Positions 2,800 through 13,894 of a stretch of DNA of 13,894 bases are shown piece by piece. Every line of letters starts with the position of its first letter. Positions within the stretch are counted from its first letter, which is position 1. Position numbers and translations under genes: made by a program. This stretch comes from Candidatus Methylomirabilis sp. (lineage in GTDB: Bacteria; Methylomirabilota; Methylomirabilia; Methylomirabilales; Methylomirabilaceae): positions 1-13,894 of the forward strand of contig JBGQJI010000059.1 of NCBI GenBank assembly GCA_041498975.1, given 5' to 3'. The notes beneath the pieces are model-generated. The model saw only the letters and a program-made list of their open reading frames with translations. It had not been told where the DNA came from and did not search any database.

Positions 2800-3125
2800 T
2801 CAGCTAACAAATGATTTTTTTCTCAAGCCCAAAAAAGGCTTGACAGTTGATGTAAGGTAAGCTAAAAGAGACTCCTCTCTGGAGGTCAAAGCCTGCAAAT
2901 GCTTATGGGACGCGGTTTTCCACAGCACCACCACTTCTCGATGATGTCCATAATCGGCAGCGAACGCGGTCGGACTGAGACTGGGCGAGGGTCTCAGCCT
3001 TATCCACACCTGTGGATAACTCTGTGGATAATACAAATCACATCTGGCGAGGGTTTTTCAAGGATCGTGCTAAGCTTCTACTGCAAATTCAATAGGTTGG
3101 ATGAGGAGTCCCCCTGTGGATAACA
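2800..3125. other. DnaA-box cluster: probable oriC and/or dnaA autoregulatory region
   Basis: Five matches to TTWTNCACA: TTTTCCACA 2916-2924, TTATCCACA 3000-3008, and TGTGGATAA at 3011-3019, 3023-3031 and 3115-3123. AT-rich tract at about 2797-2870. IHF-like ATTCAATAGGTTG at 3087-3099 (1 mismatch to WATCAANNNNTTR). Flanking genes point away from this site. Confidence 0.8.
2840..2868 (+). promoter_or_regulatory. Candidate dnaA promoter
   Basis: TTGACA 2840-2845, 17-bp spacer, TAAAAG 2863-2868 (imperfect -10), with A/T tracts upstream. Confidence 0.4.
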
Positions 3126-3142
3126 GTGGTGGAGGTGCGAGT

Positions 3143-4501
3143 ATGAGCGGTGTTCAGTCTATCTCCAAGGCACACGAGATCTGGCAGGAGGCTCTCTCGG
3201 CCATCCAGAGCAGGGTTGCGCGCCAGAGCTTCGACAACTGGTTCCGTCCCCTGGCCCTCGAGTCGATTGAAGAGTCGCGAGTCAGCGTGCGGCTCCCGAA
3301 TCGGTTCTTCAAGGAGTGGTTCGAGGACCATTATCTCGGTCTCCTCAAATCGGTGCTCGAGGACCTGATGTTCACCAAGGCGGACGTGATCCTCAGCGTT
3401 CAAGAACAAGAGAGTCAGGTGGAGCCCGACCCGAAACTTGAGGCCGCTACGAGGCGCCCGATCCGCCGACATCGGAACGAAACACCCTTCCTGAACCCGA
3501 AGTATACATTCGAGACCTTCGTCGTTGGCAGCTCGAACCAGTTCGCCCATGCCGGATGTCTGGCCGTGGGGGAGCAGCTCTCTAAGGCGTACAACCCGCT
3601 CTTCATCTACGGCGGCGTGGGGTTGGGGAAAACCCATCTGCTCCACGCGATCGGCCATCTGGTTTTGAGGCGGAACGGTAGGCTCCGGCTCTCCTACGTC
3701 TCTTCCGAAAAGTTCACGAACGACTTGATCAACGCGATCCGATTCGACTCCACCGTAGAGTTCCGCAACCGCTACCGGAGCCTCGACCTCCTCATGATCG
3801 ACGACATTCAGTTCATCGCCGGCAAAGAGCGAACCCAGGAAGAGTTCTTTCACACCTTCAATGACCTGTACGACTCCGCCAAGCAGATCGTGATCTCTTC
3901 CGATAGCCTCCCCCGTGAGATCCCGACGCTTGAGGAGCGGCTCCGCTCCCGGTTCGAGTGGGGTCTGATCGCCGACATCCAGCCGCCCGACCTCGAGACC
4001 AAGGCGGCCATCCTTCGGAAGAAGGCGCAGGCTGAGGCCGTTCGGCTTCCCGATGAAGTCTCGCTCTTCATCGCGAAGAACGTCCAGTCAAATATCAGAG
4101 AGCTGGAAGGCTCGTTGGTTCGCCTCATCGCGTACGCCTCGTTGACGGGCCGGGAAATCACTCTGGAGCTGGCCCAGGAAACTCTGAAAGACCTCAATGC
4201 CGAGCGCGCGAAGGTGATCACCCTTGCGGCTATCCAGCGGGTGGTGGCTGACTTCTTCCGGCTCAAGGTCGAAGACCTGAAGTCCAAAGAGCGGAACCAG
4301 GGAGTCGTGCTGCCGAGACAGGTGGCGATGTACCTGAGCCGCACCATGACCGTCTCATCATTGCCGGCCATCGGCGAGGCCTTTGGAGGAAAAGATCATA
4401 CGACTGTGATCCACGCCTGCGAGAAGATCAAGCGGCGACTTGTGGCCGATGAAGGATTCCGGCGACAGATCGAATCTCTCTCCCAAACGATTGCTTCCTA
4501 A
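3143..4501 (+). CDS. dnaA: Chromosomal replication initiator protein DnaA
   Basis: 452 aa from ATG 3143 with SD GGAGGT at 3131-3136. Contains LNPKYTFETFVVGSSN, YNPLFIYGGVGLGKTHL (Walker A), LLMIDDIQF (Walker B), TQEEFFHTFN, RLRSRFEWGL and domain IV FGGKDHTTVIHA. Confidence 0.99.
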   Translation: MSGVQSISKAHEIWQEALSAIQSRVARQSFDNWFRPLALESIEESRVSVRLPNRFFKEWFEDHYLGLLKSVLEDLMFTKADVILSVQEQESQVEPDPKLEAATRRPIRRHRNETPFLNPKYTFETFVVGSSNQFAHAGCLAVGEQLSKAYNPLFIYGGVGLGKTHLLHAIGHLVLRRNGRLRLSYVSSEKFTNDLINAIRFDSTVEFRNRYRSLDLLMIDDIQFIAGKERTQEEFFHTFNDLYDSAKQIVISSDSLPREIPTLEERLRSRFEWGLIADIQPPDLETKAAILRKKAQAEAVRLPDEVSLFIAKNVQSNIRELEGSLVRLIAYASLTGREITLELAQETLKDLNAERAKVITLAAIQRVVADFFRLKVEDLKSKERNQGVVLPRQVAMYLSRTMTVSSLPAIGEAFGGKDHTTVIHACEKIKRRLVADEGFRRQIESLSQTIAS

Positions 4502-9169: not shown

Positions 9170-11080
9170 ATGAAGCGAGACTTCAATATTTCCAGCCTCA
9201 TAAGCGACATGCGCCAGCGCTTAGGGATTAGTCAGGAAAAACTGGCCGCTCAACTCCGGGTGTCACTCCCGACGATCAACCGATGGGAGAAGGGCAGGAC
9301 GAGGCCGGATGCCATGGCTTTGCATGTCATCGAGCAGTATCTCCAGCGGCTTGGCCCTCAGTATAGCGACCTGCTCCAGCGTTATTTCGGCGACGAAGTC
9401 GCCCCCCTCCCTGGAATCGACCTCCCCTCTCCTCCGCCTCGCAAGCGCCCGAAGCGCAAGAACGAGGCCAGCGAAGCAAATCTCGGCCGCCCGAGGAGCG
9501 CAGCAATGAGTCCTGGCCTCGACACGAAATCCATGGAAGGTCTTCTCTGGAAGGCGGCCTGTTCCATCCGTGGTGAGAAGGATGCGCCGAAATTCAAAGA
9601 CTACATCCTGCCGCTGGTATTTATCAAGCGACTCTCTGATGTTTTCGAGGACGAAGTGATCCGACTGACCGAAACCTACGGGGACCAGGAGACAGCCCGC
9701 ACGGTGCTGGACGCGGACCCCAGCCTGGTTCGCTTTTACATCCCACCGGAGGCCACGTGGCCTGTGGTCAGTGGCCGGCAGAAGTTCGATTGGCCCGAAG
9801 GCAAGAGACCCAAGACCCTGGGTGAGCAGCTCACGATGACCGTCCGCGCGATCACCCGCGCGAACCCCTCCCTCCAGGGCGTCATCGACATCGTAGACTA
9901 TAACGAGACCCGCAACGGCGAGCGAGAGATCAGCGAGGAAGCGCTGTCCCGCCTCATCGAGCTTCTGAGTGACCAGCGCTATCGCATGGGGCTTCACGAT
10001 GTCGAACCCGACTTCCTCGGGCGCGCGTACGAGTACCTGTTGCGCAAGTTCGCCGAGGGCCAGGGGCAGAGTGCGGGTGAGTTCTTCACTCCGAAAGAGG
10101 TTGGGTGGCTCATGGCCTATCTCATGAGGCCGAAACAAGGGGAAGAGGTGTACGACCCGTGCTGCGGGTCCGGCGGACTCCTGATCAAATGCCAGCTCGC
10201 GCTCAAGGCGCAAGAGGAAGAGATCGCCAGGCCCCTCAGACTGTACGGCCAGGAATTGACCGGGTCGTCCTTCGCCATCGCCCGGATGAACACGGTTCTC
10301 CACGACATGGAAGGAGAGATCGTTCGTGGCAACTCGATGACCAACCCGAAGTTTCTTGATGGATCGAACCTCAGGCGCTTCGACATCGTGGTCACGAACC
10401 CGATGTGGAACCAGGACAATTTCGATCCAACCTCGTATGAAAACGATCCCTTCGAGCGTTTCGTGGAGCGCGGCGGGTTCGCCCCGGCCTCGAGCGCCGA
10501 CTGGGGGTGGCTTCAGCATGTCCATGCCTCCCTCAATGACTCTGGCCGTGCGGCGGTGGTCATTGACACCGGGGCCGCGAGCCGGGGCAGCGGAAGTCAA
10601 AGCGAGAATAGAGAAAAAACCATCCGCCGCTGGTTTGTGGACCGCGACGTGATCGAGGGCGTCATCCTCCTCCCGGAAAATCTCTTCTACAACACCACAG
10701 CGGCCGGCATCATCATCCTTCTCAACCGCTGCAAATCCAAAGACCGGCAGGGCCGCATGGTTCTGATCAACGCCAGTGGCGAATTCGAGAAAGGCCGCCC
10801 GAAAAACTTCATTCCCGATGCGTCCATCAAGAAGATCGCCGAAGGGTTCCACGCGGGCAAGGACGTGGAACGCTTCGTCGAGGTCGCCAGCATCGAAGAG
10901 ATCGCGCAGAACGACTACAACCTTTCGCCCTCGCGGTACATCGAAACAGCCGCGGCGGCGCAGCACCGCGACGTTCAGACTATCCTGGATGATCTGTCGA
11001 AGCTGGAGGCGGAATCGAAACAATTGGATGGTGACCTGAAGGAGATCTTTACCGGACTTGGCTATCAGTGGCGCAGCTAG
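9170..11080 (+). CDS. hsdM: Type I R-M methyltransferase subunit with an N-terminal XRE/Cro HTH domain
   Basis: 636 aa. About residues 10-60 form an HTH (MRQRLGISQEKLAAQLRVSLPTINRWEKG), then a Pro/basic linker, HsdM_N (LLWKAACSIRG..KDYILPLVFIKRLSD), DFLGRAYEYLLRKFA, GEFFTPKEV, motif I YDPCCGSGG, YGQE, motif IV NPMW, LPENLFYNT and NDYNLSPSRYI. Confidence 0.95.
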   Translation: MKRDFNISSLISDMRQRLGISQEKLAAQLRVSLPTINRWEKGRTRPDAMALHVIEQYLQRLGPQYSDLLQRYFGDEVAPLPGIDLPSPPPRKRPKRKNEASEANLGRPRSAAMSPGLDTKSMEGLLWKAACSIRGEKDAPKFKDYILPLVFIKRLSDVFEDEVIRLTETYGDQETARTVLDADPSLVRFYIPPEATWPVVSGRQKFDWPEGKRPKTLGEQLTMTVRAITRANPSLQGVIDIVDYNETRNGEREISEEALSRLIELLSDQRYRMGLHDVEPDFLGRAYEYLLRKFAEGQGQSAGEFFTPKEVGWLMAYLMRPKQGEEVYDPCCGSGGLLIKCQLALKAQEEEIARPLRLYGQELTGSSFAIARMNTVLHDMEGEIVRGNSMTNPKFLDGSNLRRFDIVVTNPMWNQDNFDPTSYENDPFERFVERGGFAPASSADWGWLQHVHASLNDSGRAAVVIDTGAASRGSGSQSENREKTIRRWFVDRDVIEGVILLPENLFYNTTAAGIIILLNRCKSKDRQGRMVLINASGEFEKGRPKNFIPDASIKKIAEGFHAGKDVERFVEVASIEEIAQNDYNLSPSRYIETAAAAQHRDVQTILDDLSKLEAESKQLDGDLKEIFTGLGYQWRS

Positions 11081-11094
11081 AAAGCCCGCGGAGT

Positions 11095-11146
11095 GGTGGT
11101 CACGGTCTGTGACCACCTTTAAGGTCACAATTTGCGACCTTAAAGG
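11095..11146. promoter_or_regulatory. Two tandem palindromes with core GGTCRC-N5-GYGACC upstream of the ORF6N gene
   Basis: A: GGTGGTCAC-ggtct-GTGACCACC (11095-11117). B: CCTTTAAGGTCACAA-t-TTGCGACCTTAAAGG (11116-11146, one mismatch). Centres are 25 bp apart. A regulatory role is inferred. Confidence 0.65.
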
Positions 11147-11160
11147 GAAGGGGTAGTAGC

Positions 11161-11679
11161 ATGGAGAGCCTAGTTCCATTAGAGCGCATCGAGACGAGAA
11201 TCATCGTGTTCCGTGGCCACAAAGTCATGCTCGACAGCGATCTGGCTGATCTTTATGGTGTTTCTACCAAACGACTAAACGAGCAGGTTCGGAGAAATAT
11301 CAAGCGATTTCCAGCCGATTTCATGATCCAGTTAACGGATGAGGAGGCCAATGCTTTAAGGTCGCAAATTGCGACCTTAAAGCCGGGTCGCGGCAAGCAC
11401 CGTAAGTATTTGCCGTATGCGTTTACCGAGCAGGGTGTGGCCATGCTCTCGAGTGTCCTAAACAGTGAACGGGCCATTCAGGTCAACATCGAGATCATGC
11501 GGGCGTTTGTCCGGCTTCGAGCAATGGCACTCTCTTACAAGGAGCTTGCCCGAAAGGTGGACGCGATGGAAAAGAAGTATGACTCACGGTTCAAAGTGGT
11601 CTTCGACGCCATCCGCAAGCTCATGGAGCCGGTTGAGCGACCGAGAGCGCGGGTTGGGTTCCGGGCCGAGAGAGCGTGA
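11161..11679 (+). CDS. ORF6N-domain (KilA-N-related) DNA-binding protein
   Basis: 172 aa with IIVFRGHKVMLDSDLADLYGVSTKRLNEQVRRNIKRFPADFMIQLT, LPYAFTEQGVAMLSSVLNSERAIQVNIEIMRAFV and C-terminal VGF. Its stop overlaps the hsdS GTG (GTGA). Confidence 0.92.
   Translation: MESLVPLERIETRIIVFRGHKVMLDSDLADLYGVSTKRLNEQVRRNIKRFPADFMIQLTDEEANALRSQIATLKPGRGKHRKYLPYAFTEQGVAMLSSVLNSERAIQVNIEIMRAFVRLRAMALSYKELARKVDAMEKKYDSRFKVVFDAIRKLMEPVERPRARVGFRAERA
11353..11383. repeat. Perfect 31-bp palindrome inside the ORF6N coding sequence
   Basis: GCTTTAAGGTCGCAA-a-TTGCGACCTTAAAGC, encoding A65-L-R-S-Q-I-A-T-L-K74. 27/29 identical to 11117-11145. Confidence 0.95.
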
Positions 11680-12956
11680 ACATGGCTGGGCTCATCGAAA
11701 CAAGAATTGGGCCGTTACCCAAAGAATGGGAACTTGTCCAACTCCGCGACACCTGTCTGGATTTCTTCGGCGGAGGCACACCATCAACTAAGACCCCCGA
11801 GTTTTGGGACGGCAATGTAGCTTGGACAACCAGCGCCCATTTGGATGGGCTCTATCTAACAACCGGGCAGCGACGCATAACCGAGGTTGGGCTTGAACAT
11901 AGCGCATGCCGCGTGGTCCCTGCCGGAAACCTTTTGATCGGCACTCGCGTCGGGGTTGGGAAGACCTCCGTCAATCTTATTGATATTGCGATAAGCCAAG
12001 ATCTCACCGGGGCGATCATAGATAAGGAACGTTTTCTTCCGGAGTATCTGGCCCTCTATCTCCAGACAGCTTGCTGTCAATCAGTCTTCGCTCTCCAGAA
12101 ACGTGGAGCTACGATCAAAGGCATTCCTCGGGAGGACCTCCATCGTATCGAAATCGCCGCCCCCCCTCTGCCTGAACAACGCGCCATAGCCGGGATCCTA
12201 TCAAAGTTCCTCGCGGCAGTAGAGCTGCAGCACAGGATCGTGGCCACGCTGAAGGAACTGAAGGCCGCGACGATGGCCAAGCTCTTCCGCGAGGGTCTCC
12301 GCGGTGAACCCCTCAAACAAACCGAAATCGGCGAGATCCCCAAGGGCTGGGCGATCCTGCGACTTGACCAAGTCGCTACTATCGAGCGCGGCAAGTTTAC
12401 ACACCGCCCTCGGAATGACCCCCGATTCTATGGAGGCACAATCCCGTTCATTCAAACCGGTGACGTCGCGAAATGCAATGGACGAATTCGCACTTACACT
12501 CAAACGCTCAACGACGACGGCCTGGCGATCAGTCGGCTGTTCCCCAGGGGAACTATTGTCCTCACGATCGCGGCAAATATTGCTGACACCGGGATCTTGG
12601 AGTTCGATAGTGCCTTTCCCGACAGCCTCGTTGGAATCACCCCCGACGACACCATGGACACGGTTTTCTTGCAATACTACTTGCGAACTCAAAAGACAGA
12701 AATGGACCGGTTGGCACCAAAAGGTACTCAGAAAAATATCAACATCCAGTTTTTGAAACCGTGGCCGACTCCACGCCCCAGGATCGATGAACAGAGAGAG
12801 ATCGCGCAGAGCCTGCGCTCCTTTGATGACCGTCTGGAAGTCGCATCAGCAAAGCACCACACCTTCAAGTCTCTCTTCTCCTCGATGCTCCATCTGCTCA
12901 TGACCGGCCAGGTTCGAATCAATCGTGTGAAACCTGGAGAGGAAAGACATGGCTAG
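11676..12956 (+). CDS. hsdS: Type I R-M specificity subunit (two TRDs)
   Basis: 426 aa with two repeated halves: IGPLPKEW..GGGTPS...PPLPEQRAIAGIL and TEIGEIPKGW...PRIDEQREIAQSL, ending SMLHLLMTGQVRI. Start is GTG 11676 or ATG 11682. Confidence 0.95.
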   Translation: MNMAGLIETRIGPLPKEWELVQLRDTCLDFFGGGTPSTKTPEFWDGNVAWTTSAHLDGLYLTTGQRRITEVGLEHSACRVVPAGNLLIGTRVGVGKTSVNLIDIAISQDLTGAIIDKERFLPEYLALYLQTACCQSVFALQKRGATIKGIPREDLHRIEIAAPPLPEQRAIAGILSKFLAAVELQHRIVATLKELKAATMAKLFREGLRGEPLKQTEIGEIPKGWAILRLDQVATIERGKFTHRPRNDPRFYGGTIPFIQTGDVAKCNGRIRTYTQTLNDDGLAISRLFPRGTIVLTIAANIADTGILEFDSAFPDSLVGITPDDTMDTVFLQYYLRTQKTEMDRLAPKGTQKNINIQFLKPWPTPRPRIDEQREIAQSLRSFDDRLEVASAKHHTFKSLFSSMLHLLMTGQVRINRVKPGEERHG

Positions 12957-13113: not shown

Positions 13114-13342
13114 CACCCCGGGTAGGCTGCCGGCTGATATCAGGATAGGCTGCGAAGCATGCAGTGTTTGACGGAGTGATGGGTTTGGCAAAGTCTCGCC
13201 ATGTGATTGATATTGTGGTTGACCATGCTCACTGTGGATTAACCGGCTTGACGAGATATGCTGCTTTGCGTTGTTGCAATAGATCTAAATGGGCCGCTCT
13301 CTAAATGCCGCCGTTTCAGTAGGGGCGATTGGAGGTGAAGCA

Positions 13343-13894
13343 ATGAAGTTAAAGGAAGTGCAGGTTCGGAATTTTCGAAACATCCTCGATTCAACTCCGG
13401 TTCACATTCAGCCGGATGTAACCTGCCTGGTTGGGAAAAACGAAGCTGGAAAGACGGCGTTACTTCACGCCTTATATCGGCTCCATCCCGCACGAGCTAA
13501 CGTCAAATTTTCTGTTCCCGATCATTATCCGGCCTGGCTGGAAAAGAGGGATCGGCTGGAAGGCAAAGACCTCGAAAAGTTTGTCCCGACACGGGCTATC
13601 TTTGAGCTAGAACCTACCGATGTCGCGCCCTTCGAAGCCAAGTTCGGACCAAATGTATTAAAGGGCACCACGCTTTCCCTTGAGCGCAACTACGAAGGCA
13701 CGCTTTCCTGCGACCTCAATGCGGACGAACAAACTGCGGTTCGGAACTGCGTGTCGGGTCTAAAGCTCCTTAAAAAGTTCTCAGACCAAGCGAAGGGTCT
13801 AAAAACGTTCCAAGATCTCAAAGCGTATGCCCAAGAGCTAGCCACAAGAAAGGCCGAGGACGAAGAGAGCGGGAAGGTATCGGAAGGTATTTCC
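13343..13894 (+). CDS. ABC/SMC-like ATPase (AAA_15 / OLD-family ATP-dependent nuclease N-terminus), runs off the window
   Basis: Not in the ORF track because it has no stop. SD GGAGGT at 13331-13336. MKLKEVQVRNFRNILDSTPVHIQPDVTCLVGKNEAGKTALLHALYRL... with Walker A GKNEAGKT; open for 184 codons to the window end. Confidence 0.9.
   Translation, partial: MKLKEVQVRNFRNILDSTPVHIQPDVTCLVGKNEAGKTALLHALYRLHPARANVKFSVPDHYPAWLEKRDRLEGKDLEKFVPTRAIFELEPTDVAPFEAKFGPNVLKGTTLSLERNYEGTLSCDLNADEQTAVRNCVSGLKLLKKFSDQAKGLKTFQDLKAYAQELATRKAEDEESGKVSEGIS

Follow-up and report, generated by a model that had tools for sequence, protein, structure and literature searches.

The 13,894-base stretch of Candidatus Methylomirabilis sp. 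DNA analysed here (contig JBGQJI010000059.1, referred to below as the window) contains three copies of one nucleic-acid element, which we term the ORF6N unit. This unit is a dyad of about 25-35 nucleotides (nt) with an odd centre; one copy lies within the coding sequence of an ORF6N-domain gene situated between the type I restriction-modification genes hsdM and hsdS, and the other two, palindromes A and B, lie in the spacer directly upstream of this gene (Table 1). Across the ORF6N family, the arm-to-arm complementarity of the in-gene copy is maintained at the level of the DNA or RNA, the identity of the paired bases is partly free, and the encoded peptide is a passenger. That this DNA-level element is real we regard as almost certain, and we tentatively interpret it as a cis-regulatory site of a mobile defence gene, which might be bound by the ORF6N protein itself.

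Three palindromes and one element

The palindromic core GGTCRC-N5-GYGACC is found three times in the window, in A, in B and in the in-gene palindrome, against an expectation of 0.01 from 200 shuffles, none of which reached three occurrences, and scans for palindromes and for the core detected no further units elsewhere in the window. The arms of palindrome A (GGTGGTCAC / GTGACCACC) are of the VV type, and its translation between positions 11096 and 11119 is VVTVCDHL. Palindrome B translates as LRSQFATLK (11119-11145) in the same frame as the ORF6N start codon at 11161, and the two peptide readings are offset from each other by one base. B ends 14 nt short of this start codon, directly 5' of the GGAAGGGG ribosome-binding site, and the 3' ends of the two palindromes lie 14-43 nt from it. 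The in-gene palindrome codes for A-L-R-S-Q-I-A-T-L-K (residues 65-74). Over 29 nt, B and the in-gene copy form a 93% direct repeat and a 97% inverted repeat at a distance of 208 nt; this likeness ends exactly at the palindrome ends, and the arms of the two units differ at only 1 of 22 positions. In the in-gene unit 12 of 12 examined positions are paired, as opposed to 4.0-4.6 in synonymous recodings of the same segment (p about 5e-4). As single strands, A (-16.8 kcal/mol, z -3.9), B (-17.6, z -6.1) and the in-gene unit (-22.3, z -8.2) all fold more stably than their shuffled versions. In the minimum-free-energy fold of 11075-11400 (-121 kcal/mol, z -4.9), B pairs with the in-gene unit, an arrangement that replaces the separate hairpins; the ribosome-binding site and the first 65 codons are then contained in a single large loop.

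Of 597 confirmed matches to a profile of 37 homologues, the best 80 were retrieved as loci, which come from many phyla (loci carry L numbers and individual proteins P numbers below), and a hidden Markov model search of the open reading frames of these loci yielded 94 ORF6N entries, the window gene included. A palindrome with at least 9 of 12 positions paired around an odd centre, which lies about 190-270 nt from the start of the gene, is present in 89 of the 94, with all 12 positions paired in 35 genes, 11 in 38, 10 in 14 and 9 in two. Four of the five entries without it are fragments that do not contain the region. The fifth, L056, is the sole full-length gene in the sample in which the in-gene palindrome has been erased, by a GC-rich recoding that leaves 6 of 12 positions paired; it still codes for the related peptide LKAHLGSTRSW (about 1290-1340), and a perfect unit (1029-1063) lies 40 nt ahead of its start. 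The element is also kept in all eight of the plasmid-borne genes that were fetched, at 32-47% identity.

Mean pairing in the 89 genes is 11.19 of 12 positions, against 4.97 in synonymous recodings with uniform codons and 4.88 with the codon usage of the gene itself, and each of the 89 genes individually exceeds its recodings at p<0.05. The choice of codons is forced by the partner arm: arginine is encoded by AGG in 44 cases, by AGA in 16 and by CGG in one; serine TCA (34) is coupled to valine GTG (34) and serine TCG (25) to alanine GCG (25); phenylalanine TTC, cysteine TGC and tyrosine TAC are coupled to glycine; and the alternation of isoleucine and phenylalanine amounts to an A or a T as the central base (ATT 35, TTT 35). 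In a gapless alignment of 35 columns 90.7% of the cells are paired and 11 of the 14 pairs show double changes, with a covariation score of 0.536 compared to 0.176 after shuffling (the observed score was reached in none of 500 shuffles) and 0.07-0.14 for slid partners. At position +/-4, for instance, the pairs A:T (34), G:C (25) and C:G (25) interchange, and 84 of 85 genes have a Watson-Crick pair there. Such compensatory changes of the arms alter the encoded amino acids, as in L088, where a change of glutamine to lysine and another of alanine to serine together keep position +/-3 paired. The mismatches within +/-12 (G.T 11, A.C 25, other 32) are confounded by codon constraints. The arms vary between 10 and 17 base pairs (bp), and the protein loop coded by the in-gene unit is variable in length, often comprising two or three tandem units (e.g. 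L039, L045, L083 and P0339). Where three or four ORF6N paralogues stand in tandem (L080, 3385-5733; L062, 3575-5264; L052, 1053-2672), their in-gene palindromes are all different.

The constraint is further illustrated by the occurrence of the same core in two reading frames. In 85 genes, which form the RSQxxT class and include the window gene, the palindrome is centred on codon position 1; in L047, L070, L075 and the third gene of L052, as well as in the plasmid genes L081 and L082, it is centred on codon position 2. The VV-class palindrome of the latter genes occupies the same position in the gene as that of the RSQ class, and L070 and L075 match GGTCRC-N5-GYGACC exactly. At the protein level, RSQ(I/F)(A/V)T homologues and an EVV(A/T)NCDHL type both exist at this position of ORF6N proteins; among 120 proteins homologous to that of L047, 116 carry the latter, and three of the remaining four (P0167, P0191 and P0234) have EVVTVCDHL, in exact agreement with the translation of palindrome A. 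In the codon-position-2 frame the codons flanking the centre are reverse complements of each other, and the flanking residue pairs agree with this expectation (Ala-Cys 131, Thr-Cys 46, other 5); the pairs Glu-Phe and Lys-Phe are found in the two Segatella plasmids. The peptide thus follows the DNA, and one and the same core yields RSQxxT in the first subfamily and VVxNCDH in the second. The original prediction, which was made from the window alone, had translated A and B as above, had named both peptide types and had proposed that they share one core in shifted frames; all of this is confirmed, including the presence of the core in the DNA of VV-type genes. It had also proposed that selection acts on the DNA and not on the peptide. 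The use of one core in two frames, the pairing in excess of synonymous recoding and the compensatory changes together indicate a constraint on the nucleic acid, and this proposal stands in the form of selection or drive. In a poorly resolved FastTree phylogeny of 113 representatives computed with the segment masked, 9 of 110 branches are starred, and the frame label needs 16 changes, of which the starred branches force two.

The Segatella copri plasmids L081 (2955 bp) and L082 (4140 bp) have a replication initiator and a VV-class ORF6N gene as their only annotated genes, and each of these ORF6N genes carries its own compensated version of the palindrome. The paralogue array of L052 holds both reading-frame classes.

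Units outside the coding sequence

A covariance model (R1) built from the in-gene units and searched against 85 sources (589,262 bases) recovered, at E<=0.01, 25 extragenic sites, which are spread over 21 of the sources. Twenty of these adjoin an ORF6N gene, at a distance of up to about 130 nt on the upstream side of the start or directly past the stop; the ends of the upstream units are typically 3-45 nt from the start, and post-stop units are seen in L084 and, weakly, in L068. Palindrome B scores 37.4 bits (E 4e-6) and the in-gene unit of the window 47.9 bits, and the best score overall is that of a non-coding unit of L017. Units form arrays of two or three in the window and in L017, L029, L049 and L050. 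Dyad sites adjoin the ORF6N start in the window, with equivalents in 20 other sources, in the manner of C-box-like operators. The arm type of palindrome A recurs within the gene in L047 and in non-coding units of L006 and L062. Extragenic units differ from the in-gene unit of their own locus at 5.24 of 22 positions and from those of other loci at 7.15 (P 0.0024, n=17), and in L086, L060, L077 and L084 identical lineage-specific arms are shared by extragenic and in-gene units. Beyond mere pairing, the non-coding units keep the sequence consensus of the family, and those of L034, L010 and L002 have decayed. The unit at positions 55-85 of L034 is a hybrid, in which the shared core is flanked on the left by an arm of the RSQ type and on the right by one of the VV type; it looks like the product of recombination between two neighbouring units, and several decayed units then follow upstream of the gene.

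Several familiar identities were considered for these palindromes and rejected. No intrinsic terminator is called at A, B or the in-gene unit, and no T-run follows any unit. A dispersed repeat of the kind of the repetitive extragenic palindromes (REP) and bacterial interspersed mosaic elements (BIME) is rejected within the 589,262 bases searched by the adjacency of 20 of the 25 extragenic matches to an ORF6N gene. For a shufflon or other invertible phase-variation system, no recombinase domain was found among the open reading frames of the window that were tested, and the repeats lie outside hsdS. A scan of 10800-11900 against Rfam at E<=10 returned only a microRNA model at chance level (17.6 bits against a gathering cut-off of 87).

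The ORF6N gene, its product and its surroundings

The product of the window gene belongs to the ORF6N family, with a PF10543 score of 121.7 bits (gathering cut-off 27.8) over residues 13-99. In an AlphaFold2 model (mean predicted local distance difference test score, pLDDT, 72.4) the N-terminal domain resembles a winged helix, and a long helix makes up the C-terminal part. Residues 66-74, which the palindrome encodes, comprise the end of the helix 60-69 and the first part of a loop, which is described as disordered and basic and in which residues 70-81 have pLDDT <50. A Foldseek search against the PDB returned weak winged-helix matches at best, headed by the domain of Dachshund/Ski (E 0.16), and a sequence search of the PDB with the family profile recovered nothing meaningful. 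The protein matches three models of PDC-S05, a candidate defence family of PADLOC (PDLC04856, E 1e-57; PDLC04869, E 5e-56; PDLC04849, E 1.3e-41). One representative of PDC-S05 is reported in a preprint to have protected E. coli B against the phages T7, T5 and T4 (10.1101/2024.09.26.614923); as far as the accessible part of that report goes, the tested protein has a RhuM domain and may not be of the ORF6N form, and the palindrome is unmentioned. Longer ORF6N proteins of 298 residues are encoded in L084 (2480-3376) and L088 (1471-2367); their C-terminal part is weakly phospholipase D (PLD)-like, of the HKD nuclease type (PLDc_2 with E 0.003 in L088, below cut-off), and both match a 306-residue PDC-S05 model at E about 1e-120.

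Table 1. Positions of genes and palindromes in the window.
Feature	Position	Strand	Details
hsdM, type I methyltransferase	9170-11080	+	Pfam N6_Mtase 4.9e-89, HsdM_N 1.6e-21; PADLOC MTase_I
Palindrome A, extragenic	11095-11117	.	perfect 9-bp arms 11095-11103 / 11109-11117, 5-nt loop
Palindrome B, extragenic, RSQ type	11116-11146	.	15-nt arms, one A.C mismatch, 1-nt centre
ORF6N-domain gene, 172 aa	11161-11679	+	Pfam PF10543, E 1.6e-35; between hsdM and hsdS
In-gene palindrome	11353-11383	.	perfect 31 nt, 15-nt arms 100% complementary
hsdS, type I specificity subunit	11676-12956	+	Pfam Methylase_S 2.2e-32
AAA_15 ATPase N-terminal part, AriA/GajA/PtuA-like	13289-13894, truncated at window end	+	Pfam AAA_15 2.1e-13; PADLOC AriA 1.4e-13

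In the window the spacer between hsdM and the ORF6N gene measures 80 nt and holds the two abutting palindromes, the ribosome-binding site and nothing else. The ORF6N stop and the hsdS start overlap by 4 nt (GTGA), and the translation of hsdS is therefore probably coupled to that of ORF6N. While hsdM and hsdS of a type I operon are present, no hsdR was found within the window, and the next gene codes for the AAA_15 ATPase. This gene is part of the same defence island of low guanine-plus-cytosine (GC) content as the operon, the GC fraction being 0.50-0.57 from about 10800 onward compared to about 0.62 on the dnaA side. The order hsdM-ORF6N-hsdS recurs in L074, and a similar one is seen in L088. 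The N-terminus of HsdM is a Cro/C1-type HTH_3 domain (residues 13-59, E 3.4e-11; window 9170-9400), an unusual fusion that could regulate the operon itself. On the other side of the window, two inverted copies of a DnaA-box-like nonamer (TTATCCACA / TGTGGATAA; 2999-3020) lie about 80 nt upstream of dnaA (3101-4501) and are probably an autoregulatory or origin-proximal site.

The family as a whole is large (32,975 representative clusters at E<=0.001) and enriched in restriction-modification and defence islands. Its genes are mostly solitary and chromosomal, with about 55-70% protein identity across phyla, and their neighbours are very diverse: hsdM is found upstream in 1 of 69 cases and restriction-modification genes downstream in 8 of 73. 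This diversity fits a gene that moves alone and needs its own control site. A survey of the neighbours at these loci found no transposase or integrase that is consistently adjacent, and DNA likeness between loci is limited to the coding region; neither common ends nor duplicated target sites were seen. Synteny between L009 and L025 indicates that an ORF6N gene can be stably inherited. In L008 (4684-5208) and L016 (2915-3298) the gene following ORF6N codes for a "23S rRNA intervening sequence protein" (PF05635), likewise a small family known for odd insertion sites. A tblastn search of a phage collection matched five unannotated records, and a blastn search of complete E. coli genomes in distant mode gave no match.

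Possible functions and relation to known systems

That the element is a functional cis-site and not a neutral feature is suggested, with good confidence, by its near-universal presence, by the preference of additional copies for a place beside the ribosome-binding site, by the decay seen in part of the non-coding copies and by the situation in L056. We propose that the units may be cis-regulatory sites that travel with a horizontally mobile defence-island gene. The winged-helix protein encoded by this gene would most likely be their ligand, recognizing them in the form of a dyad or an extruded hairpin, and by binding to its own units it could achieve autoregulation that is independent of the local promoter. 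In the window, the same sites might also gate hsdS, whose start overlaps the ORF6N stop, and A and B would represent additional leader sites, neither cassettes nor gene relics. We offer this proposal in its entirety, the ORF6N binder included, as a tentative one that falls somewhat short of being probable, and the assignment of the binding role to the ORF6N protein, acting on DNA, is by itself held no more firmly than that.

Several points weigh against the proposal of a cis-regulatory site bound by ORF6N. Intrastrand pairing predicts the strict complementarity, the free identity at positions +/-4 and +/-5 and arms that reach 17 bp; recognition of the duplex by a dimer predicts this pattern less well. 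The combination of strict pairing and free identity at these positions speaks for intrastrand pairing at some stage and is the main point against a simple duplex reading. The recognition helix is nearly invariant while the units vary, and some extragenic units, A included, differ in arm type from the gene at their locus. Palindrome A is not found by R1 at E<=1, extragenic units occur in only about a quarter of the sources, and no sigma-70-like promoter is predicted beside A and B. With regard to sampling, the best 80 loci are dominated by one class and weighted to close relatives of the window's class, the DNA of the VV class is represented by the six genes named above only, and the shuffle controls for covariation ignore phylogeny and relatedness. 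A more specific form of the proposal considers ORF6N as a self-referential module of gene and site, whose protein would recognize the dyad or hairpin in its own coding sequence. The dyad-encoded residues, at the end of the helix and the start of a basic wing-like loop, would then help to read the dyad, site and reader would co-vary, and A and B would be further cognate sites, some of them for paralogues of the other class. We consider this form improbable.

Two other explanations can be set beside this proposal. One holds that the units in leader and coding sequence act as stem-loops of the sense mRNA that control stability, processing (e.g. by RNase III) or translation; in a variant of it, B would anneal to the in-gene unit along about 29 nt, and the intervening ribosome-binding site and first 65 codons would be looped out. 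The strict complementarity with free base identity, the very stable single-strand folds and the pairing of B with the in-gene unit in the minimum-free-energy fold are in line with this, and the positions of the units, 3-90 nt 5' of starts or just past a stop, place them probably on the same transcript; moreover, the matching arms that long-range pairing needs are present in the window, L060, L077, L084 and L086. On the other hand, the mismatches do not show the wobble signature expected of a sense strand (counts as above), there is no Rfam match, and the absence of a U-tract argues against intrinsic terminators; the non-coding units retain sequence consensus as well as pairing, and A, L062, L003 and L017b are unable to pair with the local in-gene unit outside the core. 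A role at the mRNA level is plausible from the folds but is considered unlikely. The other explanation dispenses with function. In quasi-palindrome correction, template switching copies a mutation to the other arm or removes it, and a palindrome that perpetuates itself by arm-to-arm switching at replication would keep its arms matched and drag the peptide along. It predicts free identity, strict complementarity, arms of 10-17 bp and no strand bias in wobble pairs, all as observed, and the loop to which the coded residues belong is disordered and accommodates very different peptides as well as insertions. Against it stand the presence of the element in 89 of 90 entries covering the region and in all eight plasmid genes, in a family of 32,975 clusters, and the preferred site just 5' of the ribosome-binding site, which correction drive leaves unexplained. 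Likewise, extragenic units decay (L034, L010 and L002), so that drive alone does not preserve them, and L056 has a perfect upstream copy despite the loss of the in-gene one. We therefore regard mere self-perpetuation as distinctly unlikely.

The original prediction had raised two further possibilities for A and B, silent cassettes and footprints of successive ORF6N genes inserted at this spot, neither of which was supported by the analysis. Exchange of cassettes with the in-gene segment, or phase variation by inversion or deletion at the shared core, could draw on the B and in-gene repeats, on the hybrid unit of L034, which suggests recombination at the core between units, and on the two or three tandem loop units of many genes. 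However, no recombinase gene was found among the tested open reading frames of the window, A swapped into the gene would shift the frame, and no inverted or exchanged form was seen at any locus, the N-terminal part being in normal orientation at all of them; units differ within the paralogue arrays of L080, L062 and L052, and extragenic units are mostly without matching alternative coding versions. Such exchange is hardly credible. Relics or targets of mobility, whether footprints of earlier ORF6N genes or insertion and junction sites such as the hsdM-hsdS spacer, would be in keeping with the very diverse ORF6N neighbourhoods across phyla, with the location of units at gene boundaries (about 20 sources have them ahead of the ribosome-binding site, L084 and weakly L068 past the stop) and with the fact that A spells a segment of real proteins (P0167, P0191 and P0234). 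Nevertheless, the spacer contains nothing but two units and a ribosome-binding site, the likeness of B to the in-gene copy stops with the palindrome, and the sequences around A, B and the stand-alone unit of L006 bear no similarity to ORF6N, by which the reading as gene relics is rejected. The confinement of between-locus DNA likeness to the coding region without shared ends or target duplications, the synteny of L009 and L025 and the lack of a consistently adjacent transposase or integrase also speak against mobility in general, which we hold to be very improbable as an origin of the units.

Whatever its function, the element means that an apparent conserved protein motif is dictated by a DNA palindrome, which affects the alignment, annotation and modelling of ORF6N proteins, and it provides an unusually clean natural case of nucleic-acid symmetry selected over peptide identity, with one core in two frames. 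If the units are indeed portable control sites, they would account for the continued regulation of a solitary defence gene that has been horizontally transferred, and also for the possible gating of hsdS inside a type I operon. Were the self-referential module to apply, a mobile defence gene would bring along a control circuit that works wherever it lands, and the "conserved motif" of the family would really be a nucleic-acid signal.

We found no description of the element in searches of the openly accessible literature on ORF6N, KilAC/Rha, intragenic palindromes, hsdM/hsdS palindromes and PDC-S05. Sites within genes nonetheless have precedents. The parS centromere site, which Lin and Grossman are said to have placed in 1998 inside the parB/spo0J coding sequence, is likewise a perfectly palindromic site inside the gene of a DNA-binding protein and conserved across distant bacteria. 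In contrast to the ORF6N unit, which drifts by compensatory changes and is read in two frames, parS has 16 bp of essentially invariant sequence; furthermore, no partition genes are present here, and the binding by ORF6N is putative. The iterons of the lambda origin lie inside the O gene and form a replication origin together with an AT-rich region and replication genes. They share with the ORF6N units, of which one to three occur in tandem, the location of dyad sites in a part of the gene that codes for a flexible linker and the variation of the sites between relatives, whereas the ORF6N genes are mostly solitary and chromosomal, with no indication of an origin function. The pac sites inside small-terminase genes are a further precedent.

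Among regulators of restriction-modification systems, the C proteins are small and have palindromic operators. RptR, a restriction-modification regulator, binds TAGCTA within direct repeats in a promoter, according to the accessible part of its description (PMC12255303). As in these systems, the gene considered here codes for a small helix-turn-helix protein, stands beside type I restriction-modification genes and is preceded by palindromic sites. RptR differs, to the extent covered by that part of the source, in that the ORF6N units are 25-35 nt long, lie in the gene as well as upstream of it and belong to an unrelated protein family. Finally, the REP and BIME elements of enterobacteria are palindromic units that occur genome-wide, are extragenic and are tied to RAYT transposases. 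The ORF6N units resemble them as hairpin-capable units of about 30 nt that often stand in tandem between the genes of an operon, but they are tied to one gene family, and their main copy is coding.

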